A stretch of DNA of 64,000 nt, taken from contig CM000434.1 in assembly GCA_000165345.1 (NCBI GenBank), forward strand, positions 416,001 to 480,000, read 5' to 3'. The notes beneath the pieces were generated by a model. The model searched no databases. It saw nothing but the letters and a program-made list of their open reading frames with translations, and was not told where the DNA came from. Made by a program: the position numbers and the translations under genes. This document shows positions 10,839 through 14,922 of this stretch, one piece after another. The first letter of the stretch is position 1; each line of letters starts with the position of its first letter.

Positions 10839-11630
10839 TTGTACTGCCGCATAGAATTAATTATGACTCAAATAATTAAGAATCAGAAAATTTCAAGGAA
10901 AAAATCAATAGCTATAAGTAGAAAGAATAAATATAAATGTTTAATTAAAGAAATTAGAAAGTCTAAAGACTTCTTTTTAAATCTGCTCCAAGACAAAAAT
11001 TTGATATACTTTAAGACAGAATTAACAAAAATATCAAATAGATCAAATCTTCACATTGCAAGAAGAAGTGATTTGTCCAGCACTCATATGGAAAATATAT
11101 TAAAAATTACGAGGGATAACATGAAAATTCTTTATGACGAAAATCCATGGGGCGATATTTGGAGTCAAGGTTGGGATGATCATTTGAAAATGAATGAATT
11201 ATGCCATAATTTGTCTAATTATATAATTATTTATGAAAGAAATACAGATAATGCTACTAATACTATAATGAGCACTGACTGCTCTTCAGATATAAGCTTC
11301 CACAATGACTTACGTACGGATATAAATATCTTGTCGTTTTTGAGCTTCCGCTTCGAGTTAGAGGATGAATTTGACTCATGTAATAAGCATATAATAGGAT
11401 ATATGTATGAATTGCAATCATTGGTTAAAGGGAAAGGTTATGGAAGACTTCTTATTGATTTGCTCCGTTTCATTTGTAATGAACTTCAGATATACAAAAT
11501 AATATGTACAGTATTAAGAAAGAATGTTGACGCAGTGAGATTTTATACTAAAAAGTGTGGCTTCGCTATTGACGAAACATCTCCAGAAAATGAGCCATAC
11601 ATCATTTTATCTACTAATACTTCAAAATAA
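10839..11630 (+). CDS. N-alpha-acetyltransferase 40 (NatD/Nat4-like histone H4/H2A N-terminal acetyltransferase), GNAT fold
   Basis: GNAT motif A KGKGYGRLLIDLL. Flanks resemble human NAA40: YDENPWGDIWSQGWDD vs YEQSEWGWKDREKREE; LSFRFELEDEFDSCNKHIIGYMYELQSLVKGKGYGRLLI...ICTVLRKNVDAVRFYTKKCGFAIDETSP vs [36 protein letters not shown]...[28 protein letters not shown]. Confidence 0.65.
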   Translation: MYCRIELIMTQIIKNQKISRKKSIAISRKNKYKCLIKEIRKSKDFFLNLLQDKNLIYFKTELTKISNRSNLHIARRSDLSSTHMENILKITRDNMKILYDENPWGDIWSQGWDDHLKMNELCHNLSNYIIIYERNTDNATNTIMSTDCSSDISFHNDLRTDINILSFLSFRFELEDEFDSCNKHIIGYMYELQSLVKGKGYGRLLIDLLRFICNELQIYKIICTVLRKNVDAVRFYTKKCGFAIDETSPENEPYIILSTNTSK

Positions 11631-11738
11631 TCTTATGCATGTAAAAAGACAATTAGGGCGCTTTCCCCCCTTCTTTTTGCAAGTTTAAATTAGTTCTCGT
11701 TCATATTTTGATTTTCGGAAATTATAAGACTTTGCTTA

Positions 11739-12413
11739 ATGGTGCAAAATTCGTTTGAACTATGTAAGACTTACAACCAGTTTAAACTTAAAAATCTTAC
11801 AGAATACTCGTATTGTACTCCTGATTTGTTAGAGCTCACTCAGTTTATTATATTTAACAGCAAGTCATCATTCGATACAATAAGTGAAGTGGTAGATGTA
11901 TTTAGTTTTTTTGATACTGTCAAGCGAATTTATTATTCGTGGCAAAAAAATCCTGTTGCATCAAGACAAGTCGATTATGATTTGTTGGCACTTTTGACTG
12001 TTTTCAGAGCATCAAATTGGCTGAACTCGAATCAACACAAAATTTTAGAAGAGTATATTACAGATTTGACGGATGGATATACAAATTGGGATGTACTTTT
12101 CCCCGTTCAAAATCTCCGTATTGCAGTTGAAAGAGCACTAAAGAGTCAAGTTACAGGGATTGTGCAAGGGAGAAATGGAGTCGAGGTATGGTTTAGAGAA
12201 GGGCATATTGGTTCTAATCAAGTTTCCGGGATGGTAATTTTATCTCCCTGTTACATTCAGATCAAAGATGTGATTGATGGAAGTATGTATACATATACTG
12301 GTGGCCCATTCCCCATGTCACCTCTAGACTTTGAGGACATTTTGATGAATTGCCCGAAATCGTGGGTTTATAATACATCTATATATTCATCCAATTCAGA
12401 CTCACAATTGTAA
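11739..12413 (+). CDS. Hypothetical protein, 224 aa, no recognisable domain
   Basis: Single ORF in a gene-sized gap between NAA40 and MAK16. Codon usage matches neighbours. No similarity recognised by eye. Confidence 0.4.
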   Translation: MVQNSFELCKTYNQFKLKNLTEYSYCTPDLLELTQFIIFNSKSSFDTISEVVDVFSFFDTVKRIYYSWQKNPVASRQVDYDLLALLTVFRASNWLNSNQHKILEEYITDLTDGYTNWDVLFPVQNLRIAVERALKSQVTGIVQGRNGVEVWFREGHIGSNQVSGMVILSPCYIQIKDVIDGSMYTYTGGPFPMSPLDFEDILMNCPKSWVYNTSIYSSNSDSQL

Positions 12414-12464: not shown

Positions 12465-13302
12465 TTAACTAGTCATTTTAATATCTTCTTCTACTTCATA
12501 TTCGAGGTTAATTTTTTTCTTTTTTGAAAGAATTTCCCTCAACTCATGCTTATGCATCGCTTCAAGTTCATCTTCTGAGTCATCATCTATGCCCTCGATA
12601 TATTCGGCCAACTCATTTTCAAGAGAATCTCCATTACTAACTTCATCTTGAGTAACATTCTCAAGATTATCTAGTGTTTTCTCAAAATTATTAGTTGGAT
12701 AGTTGTATATTCCATCATACAATCCCTCTTTAAGTCTAAGTAATAACTCATTTTCAATTTCATTTTCAATCTTTGCCGCATTAAGTGCCTTATGCTCTCT
12801 TGACGCCTCTCTTCTTTCCGTTTTTTTCTTAATTGGTACAAGCTTGGGTCTTACGGTTAATGCCATCTTTCTTGCACGAATAAGAGTTTGTCTAATTCTA
12901 GTTAACCTATGTTTGCATTTTAGTATTTGATGCTCGGGATAAACATTCTTTAAATTATCATTTATTTGGGAGATTGCAACCAAAAAATTGTTACTAAGTT
13001 TAATTTTTTCCCAAAGATATCTAGGGGTATGAGCTCTCTCAGCAGTTTTCATATATAAATAGCAATCTCCTTCGTGTTCAATAACTGTTGCATATAGTAA
13101 ATTTGATAAGGGGCATGATGTACGATTGCATAGCCCTGTTACATTATATTCGTTTCTGCAAAAAGAGGTTTTGTCGCATCTAATAAATAAAACAAGAAAA
13201 GAGTAAAGTTCATTGATTATTTCGTTGTAATAAAACTTACTTTACTTTAAATGAGCAAAAATTATTGCTAACACTATTCCATATTAACTCAGGGTCGTTC
13301 AT
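12465..13302 (-). CDS. MAK16: MAK16 ribosome-biogenesis protein (Ribosomal_L28e/Mak16 family), 2 exons: 13302..13241 and 13179..12465, intron 13240..13180 (61 nt)
   Basis: The listed ORF 12465..13052 starts at a Met that aligns to the middle of yeast Mak16 (MKVIERAHFPRRLWERVRLS). The open frame continues upstream as [46 protein letters not shown]. A 62-nt first exon, MNDPELIWNSVSNNFCSFKVK (cf. [22 protein letters not shown]), is joined through a GTAAGT...TTATTAG intron. Total 777 nt, 258 aa. C-terminal acidic tail is typical of Mak16. Confidence 0.8.
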
Positions 13303-13446
13303 TTTTTAATAACTTTTTTTTTATTCAAAAGGTACAATTTGACTATAAAACTTTTACGCGCCAGCAATTCATCTTGTAAATCTTAGGAAATTTTTTTTTA
13401 GTGTATACCTAAAAATTACATTGGTTCATTTCATGATTGATTAATA

Positions 13447-14922
13447 ATGCATTTATATGGCTCTAATCATACTAAAAATGCCTTTTCTTTAGGAAATACA
13501 CGATCATTCGTCAAATCCATATTGGCTAACGATTATAGACTGGAATTTTTTTTGAACGATACCTACAGGCTAGACAATAAATATGTTCCGGGCGAATTAC
13601 GTGGAATAATTAATTGTGAGCGAATAAACATAGATGAAGAGCATTTGATGATTAATCACTCAGTATTTTCATTAAAAAAACACGTTTTTCTATTGTTAAA
13701 ATTAAAGATTGATAAAAAAAATAAAATAATTCAGTTATTTCCAATTGAAATTAAATATAGCCAAAACGAAAAAAATGAATATTCTTTAATTGAAGAATTG
13801 ATAGTTGAAAATAATATTGAGATTGCCGATCCTATTTCAATTCTCGAGAAAAATTTTGATTATTTTCATTTAAATGAAGCCCTTGAAAATTTATTCACGC
13901 CTAACTTAGACTCATTAATGGACTTCATATTTTTTATTTGGGCTGCAGATGATGAGTTTTGGGACAAAAATAAATTATGTGACATGGGAATATCAAAATG
14001 GTATGAAAGGCTAAGTAATTACAAATCCAAGGTTACAATAGATGGGATTTTATTTAACATTCCAGATTCATTAATACTTGAGTATTTCGAATTAGATGGC
14101 TTTGACATAAACTATGAAGCCCTATCAGAGAGCTCAAGGAAGTGCCTAGAAGATATTAATAAATCGATCAGAGAAAATACAGAGTTTTTTAGTATGGGCT
14201 TTTCACCAAAATTTACATGGTCAGCTCCTACAGACGCAACTTGGATCAATTCAAATAGAAGTATTTGTTGCAGGACTTTAGAAGAATTATTTATTCTTTT
14301 AAAAGCATCTACAAAAGTTTCTGAGGACATTGATAGAGCGAAAGAAGGAAATATAAGTAACGTATTATTGCTTAGAGAGTATGTACCAACACTAAATGAA
14401 ATGTTCGAATTTAGAGTGTTCATTGGGGGATGTAGCCTACATTCTGAATATAAAATTTTAGGTATAAGCCAAAGGCATATATGTTACTATTACAAAGAGC
14501 TTTCTGAAAACTTCAAATTGAGAACTGATATTAAATCTTGTATCATGGAATTTTTTCTGTATTCAAAAAAAGAATTGATTTTAGAATTATTCGACATTTT
14601 TAACAGTATGTGTATTGCATTTGATATATATATCTCAAATTATAAAGACAAATTATCAATTCTTATAATTGATGTACAACCTTTATTGCACGCTTCGCCC
14701 CTTTTATTCAATTTATTCGAACTCAAACTCAATTTATTGACTGAAGAAGGAACAGAGTTAGGTTTTGATATTCTAAGAACAACAGAGAATAATTCAACAA
14801 AAAACATGATTAATAATAGTTATCTAAAAGGTTTCGTTCCGGACGAACTTTTATCCGTTTCTAACTCCGACTTTTATAATAATGAAACTCTAGATAAACT
14901 AGAATGGATTGATTATAAATAG
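13447..14922 (+). CDS. CDC123: CDC123/D123 family protein (cell-division-cycle 123 homolog; eIF2 assembly factor)
   Basis: [39 protein letters not shown] aligns with human [76 protein letters not shown] aligns with [33 protein letters not shown]. 491 aa is longer than the roughly 340-aa norm (extensions). Confidence 0.7.
   Translation: [491 protein letters not shown]

Follow-up and report, generated by a model that had tools for sequence, protein, structure and literature searches.

The gene on the minus strand at positions 13302 to 12465 of the window, that is, the whole 64-kb stretch of DNA that was analyzed, is in our judgment a two-exon MAK16 gene of Cryptosporidium parvum chromosome 6 that is interrupted by one canonical U2-type GT-AG phase 2 intron of 61 nt (probability approximately 0.96). 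This two-exon model is already known and has been public since the 2003 chromosome 6 record.

Structure of the MAK16 gene

The start codon ATG of MAK16 occupies positions 13302-13300 of the minus strand, and an in-frame TAA is located two codons earlier at 13308-13306. Exon 1 (13302..13241, minus strand) comprises 62 nt, equal to 20 codons plus 2 nt, and encodes MNDPELIWNSVSNNFCSFKV together with the first two bases of the Lys21 codon; the TGC codon of Cys16 (13257-13255) lies inside this exon. The phase 2 GT-AG intron (13240..13180, minus strand; 61 nt, 21% GC) begins with the donor GTAAGT at 13240-13235 and continues through a T-rich tract to the acceptor TTATTAG at 13186-13180. Apart from the AG in GTAAGT, the 61-nt intron contains no AG before that of the acceptor. 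The sequence TTTAC at approximately 13207-13203 is a candidate branch site, and most Cryptosporidium species have candidate TTNAC-like elements that precede the acceptor by approximately 10-25 nt. Exon 2 (13179..12465, minus strand) comprises 715 nt including the TAA stop codon at 12467-12465 and codes for residues 21 (third base) to 258, in an open frame that differs from the frame in which exon 1 would be read through. These residues complete the Ribosomal_L28e domain, adding Cys28, Cys38, and Cys43-Pro44, and continue through the central and C-terminal Mak16 region to a short tail that is acidic and basic. Joining 13241 to 13179 yielded a stop-free 777-nt coding sequence of 258 aa, and the unspliced read-through from exon 1 ended at the TAA within GTAAGT. 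The exon and intron boundaries proposed in an earlier note on this DNA (13302, 13241, 13240..13180, and 13179..12465) were all correct.

A mechanical open reading frame (ORF) of 195 aa (12465..13052, minus strand) begins at Met64 of the spliced protein. This ORF is a calling artefact and arises because, in its frame, Met64 is the first ATG past the stop that precedes exon 2. The earlier note had placed this methionine at approximately residue 55 of Mak16 and had described the ORF as the 3' two-thirds of the gene; both values require adjustment, since the methionine has position 64 in the spliced product and aligns to residue 64 of yeast Mak16, and the ORF accounts for 76% of the protein. The same note had described the frame as remaining open upstream of the ORF with conserved Mak16 sequence, and Cys28, Cys38, Cys43-Pro, and NVTGLC were indeed found there.

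The 144-bp divergent intergenic region that MAK16 shares with the neighboring gene D123 is the most likely place for transcription to start. On the basis of the sequence and the comparative evidence, the spliceosome would remove 13240..13180 and thereby join AA to A to form the Lys21 codon. Translation from the ATG at 13302 would then produce the 258-aa protein.

Membership in the MAK16 family

Comparison of the spliced 258-aa product with the Ribosomal_L28e profile (PF01778), which the earlier note had named as a check, gave a near full-length match of 115 bits covering profile positions 1-114 of 115, and the Pfam gathering cut-off for this family is 33.2 bits. The 195-aa ORF alone scored 39 bits and matched profile positions 61-114 only. 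The Mak16 domain (PF04874; gathering cut-off, 23.5 bits) was detected with 75.3 bits at residues 138-227 of the spliced product and is also present in the 195-aa ORF. A search of PDB chains at E <= 0.001 returned four matches, all of which were MAK16 (human, S. pombe, S. cerevisiae, and 8I9P) and none of which was ribosomal protein L28e. The E-values against these chains ranged from 1.6e-62 to 7e-48, those of human, S. pombe, and S. cerevisiae being 1e-62 to 1e-50. The alignments begin at residue 2-4 in both partners (2-3 for human and yeast), and those with human and S. pombe MAK16 are gap-free between the splice junction and Cys28. The profile and structure-chain comparisons support the assignment of the predicted 258-aa product to the MAK16 family. 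The likeness to yeast Mak16 (5Z3G/6EM1) and human MAK16 (8FKP) comprises the L28e-like N-terminal domain, the cysteine motif, and the central Mak16 region, and extends to approximately residue 226; in contrast, the Cryptosporidium protein is shorter (258 versus 300-306 aa) and its acidic/basic C-terminal tail is reduced.

Exon 1 is more than a chance match. A hidden Markov model (HMM) of MAK16 residues 1-21 was constructed from 110 homologs, none of them from Cryptosporidium, and was compared with all 3035 stop-to-stop peptides in the six-frame translation of the window. The results revealed that the exon 1 peptide was the sole significant match (35 bits, E = 1.3e-9), and the runner-up scored 7 bits (E = 0.72).

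Cysteine motif and predicted function

The spliced product exhibits the cysteine pattern C16-X11-C28-X9-C38-X4-C43-P44, and each of the four cysteines is kept in 110-111 of the 111 homologs (Cys16 in 110). Cys16 is part of the protein only when exon 1 is spliced on, and the 195-aa ORF lacks all four motif cysteines. The earlier note had proposed that the spliced exon restores the Cys-rich N-terminus, and this proposal held: the pattern C-X11-C-X9-C-X4-CP is complete, with its first cysteine contributed by exon 1.

A 2025 study of yeast Mak16 demonstrated that a [4Fe-4S] cluster is bound by Cys15, Cys28, Cys38, and Cys43 of the motif CX11-13CX9CX4CP; Mak16 requires this cluster to be stable and to bind Rpf1, and the maturation of 25S rRNA depends on it as well (PMC12646323). 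By homology, Cys16, Cys28, Cys38, and Cys43-Pro of the C. parvum protein would bind a [4Fe-4S] cluster as in yeast and human MAK16, and the protein would act as a nucleolar pre-60S ribosome-assembly factor; the cluster and the binding to Rpf1 and pre-60S particles are predicted from the yeast findings (PMC12646323). Loss of Cys28 or Cys43 in yeast was as severe as the empty-plasmid control, and the C15A single mutant was viable and grew normally (PMC12646323). Of the four ligands, the cysteine encoded by exon 1 would therefore matter least.

Conservation among Cryptosporidium species

The 62-nt exon 1 and the phase 2 intron were present in all eight species compared, namely C. parvum, C. meleagridis, C. 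ubiquitum, C. canis, C. felis, C. bovis, C. ryanae, and C. muris. The deposited models of seven species carry the intron at the site corresponding to 13240..13180 of C. parvum. The intron length ranged from 49 to 74 nt across the eight species (C. meleagridis, 61; C. ubiquitum, 61; C. canis, 49; C. felis, 62; C. bovis, 64; C. ryanae, 64; and C. muris, 74 nt), and every intron has the ends GTAAGT...YAG, with a closing TAG after a T-rich stretch. The mean pairwise identity was 0.84 in exon 1 and 0.79 in the first 190 nt of exon 2; the corresponding values were 0.50 in the intron core and 0.49 in the upstream intergenic DNA. Among the 24 variable columns of exon 1, 6, 2, and 16 fall at codon positions 1, 2, and 3, respectively. 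Exon 1 thus evolves under coding constraint, with most of its changes at third positions.

None of the eight introns has a length divisible by three, and in each species the read-through meets the TAA in GTAAGT. Because of this in-frame stop at the donor and the length of the intron, splicing would be obligatory for the MAK16 reading frame.

Published data place this intron among those of its genome. Introns of C. parvum have a mean length of 84-99 bp and 22% GC, and approximately 10.8% of the genes contain introns (PMC4637869); the MAK16 intron, with 61 nt and 21% GC, is typical in both length and GC content. The introns of the CPATCC annotation are stated to have 100% RNA-seq support, a statement that applies to the annotation as a whole and is not specific to MAK16 (PMC8744675). 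The spliced MAK16 junction had no exact match in JGI metagenome contigs, a result that is uninformative on splicing. A short Logan contig (L010; SRR12959777, 1406 nt) still contains the intron and therefore offers no evidence of splicing. It differs from the window by few substitutions, such as AAT to ATT at codon 9, and therefore represents a near-identical isolate.

Choice of splice sites and alternative models

We enumerated all in-frame, stop-free GT..AG combinations that start from the ATG at 13302 and obtained ten. Conserved residues are deleted or replaced in nine of these, and the 62/61 model is the only pair that keeps FCSFKVK and FCRN and fits the intron site of the orthologs. The acceptor look-alike TTTTTGCAG, followed by A (13155..13164, minus strand; AG at 13157-13156), codes for Phe-Cys28-Arg. 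Use of this site with the same donor would produce an 85-nt intron and a 250-aa protein without CDKTSFCR, either as the main product or as a minor isoform; this is very unlikely. The combination is one of only ten that are open, and the site has a good pyrimidine tract; however, its use would delete the invariant Phe27-Cys28-Arg29, and C. bovis and C. ryanae lack its AG, carrying the Lys codon AAA instead. Splicing normally selects the first AG that follows the branch site, and the AG at 13180 comes first after the donor hexamer. Moreover, the orthologous intron of Vitrella and Xenia ends at the equivalent of 13180. The acceptor at 13156 was rejected on the basis of the loss of Cys28 and the lack of conservation of its AG.

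A single-exon gene, translated from Met64 (13052) into 195 aa without the Cys-rich N-terminus and with the similarity farther upstream representing a relic, is extremely unlikely. The 195-aa frame is the longest mechanical ORF and automatic callers report the same product, but the open frame upstream of 13052 codes for the invariant Cys28, Cys38, Cys43-Pro, and NVTGLC, and the stretch upstream of Met64 is 79% conserved across the eight species. The 195-aa form would retain just half of the L28e domain and would lack two residues, Cys28 and Cys43, whose individual loss in yeast equals the empty-plasmid control in severity (PMC12646323). An assembly or sequencing artefact that mimics an intron, or a disrupted pseudogene, has nothing in its favor beyond the interruption of the frame and is vanishingly improbable: BX526834.1 and CP029785.1, two separate assembly records, carry an identical sequence, eight species have an intron with canonical signals at this site, and the coding constraint on exon 1 also speaks against this reading. 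The two-exon model with the 13240..13180 intron is the preferred reading.

Existing annotation and truncated calls

The exact 258-aa protein has been deposited as CAD98724.1, EAZ51509.1, QOY41062.1 (CPATCC_002704), and KAL5368055.1, all from Cryptosporidium parvum, and its UniProt name is "Protein MAK16 homolog" (A0A7G2HL02). The MAK16 gene region of the window is 100% identical to BX526834.1 (chromosome 6) and CP029785.1. With 838 nt for a protein of 258 aa, the deposited gene must contain the same 61-nt intron; the 62/61 split is the sole GT..AG split that reproduces the deposited protein. The deposited C. parvum MAK16 homolog (CAD98724.1 on BX526834.1) is thus the same gene with the same model and shows no difference. 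The novelty implied by the earlier note is absent, because the curated C. parvum annotation already has the correct model. A literature search by the gene identifier (CPATCC_002704) and by Cryptosporidium MAK16 found no publication. For C. parvum, the present result has little consequence, since GenBank, UniProt, and the current reference annotation all carry the correct model.

The statement that single-exon automatic calling truncates the protein was borne out elsewhere, namely by Logan calls of 195, 203, and 221 aa and by a single-exon GenBank model of C. felis. The 195-, 203-, and 221-aa forms were found only as Logan automatic ORF calls; several Logan contigs carry Cryptosporidium MAK16 with the intron and with truncated calls of these lengths (P0015, P0018). 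MAK16 calls of 195-221 aa in this large metagenomic protein collection are ORF-only artefacts. More generally, ORF-only calling in compact, intron-poor eukaryotic genomes strips the Fe/S-binding N-terminus from MAK16.

For C. felis, the deposited MAK16 (P0013; 253 aa) is a single-exon model whose start ATG lies within the intron and whose N-terminus, MSHIYKLIDNVTTLLLR, is translated intron. The real exon 1 of C. felis is located at L005:927-988 (JABXOJ010000022.1, GCA_014529505.1), comprises 62 nt, and encodes MNDPELIWNSVCNNFCSFKVK. It is followed by a 62-nt intron that starts with GTAAGT at L005:989 and ends at 1050 with TTACTTAG. The public C. felis model is wrong and lacks Cys16, and it should be corrected to the two-exon structure. 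This revision of the C. felis model is the actionable by-product of the analysis.

Age and retention of the intron

The exon chains of Vitrella brassicaformis and Xenia sp. MAK16 were rebuilt from the deposited proteins (L011:501-2088 for Vitrella and L012:501-2834 for Xenia). Both revealed an intron after nt 62 of the coding sequence, in codon 21 and in phase 2, within FKV^K. Vitrella MAK16 contains seven introns, the first of which is at the Cryptosporidium site, and MAK16 of the octocoral Xenia contains nine, the second of which is at this site; in contrast, Cryptosporidium has only one. Vitrella and Xenia also share a phase 1 intron after nt 172, and near-matching phase 2 introns occur after nt 392 in Vitrella and nt 389 in Xenia. 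Among the MAK16 intron positions of Vitrella and Xenia, only that after nt 62 is present in Cryptosporidium. The position is common to a chromerid, an alveolate relative, and an animal, and the rebuilt exon chains indicate that it is ancient.

Whether the retention of this intron is functional, with MAK16 expression depending on splicing or being regulated by it, may be considered, although we regard this as unlikely. The idea is conceivable because all other Vitrella and Xenia positions have been lost and the nt 62 intron has been kept in all eight Cryptosporidium species, and regulation through splicing is conceivable because unspliced MAK16 RNA terminates at the donor. Alternatively, the intron may be a passive survivor of 3'-biased intron loss. 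The surviving introns of intron-poor genomes lean to the 5' end, and the Cryptosporidium MAK16 intron fits this tendency.

Gene neighborhood and other features of the window

The window has a GC content of 29.7% and its genes are tightly packed. The genes around MAK16 also match the deposited chromosome: the divergently oriented D123 on the upstream side, and on the downstream side a 224-aa gene and a GNAT acetyltransferase. ARAGORN detected no tRNA genes in the 64-kb window, and no Rfam family reached the gathering threshold across it.

The divergent intergenic region between MAK16 and D123 (13303-13446, 144 bp) contains an E2F-like core at 13357-13362, which reads CGCGCC on the plus strand and GGCGCG on the MAK16 strand and is located approximately 55-60 nt ahead of the ATG. 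In the alignment, all eight Cryptosporidium species have related GC-rich cores (GGCGC, AGCGCG, AGCGGG, and GGCGG) at this spot, and the surrounding region is approximately 49% identical. Six SGCGCS sites were observed in the window versus 2.35 expected, and 2 of 100 shuffles reached six. The E2F-like core matches the motif class that reportedly outnumbers all other upstream motifs of C. parvum (PMC3734150).

The two assembly records differ in their models of the genes on either side of MAK16. D123 (13447-14922) is 477 aa in BX526834.1 versus 491 aa in CP029785.1, and the BX526834.1 model would therefore contain a 42-nt in-frame intron. The 2003 record, BX526834.1, gives one 364-aa multi-exon product across the two genes of CP029785.1, the 224-aa gene and the GNAT-like gene of 255 aa. 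In the neighboring region 10839-12413, a mechanical 263-aa ORF with a TTG start at 10839 overshoots the 255-aa GNAT-like gene by eight codons.
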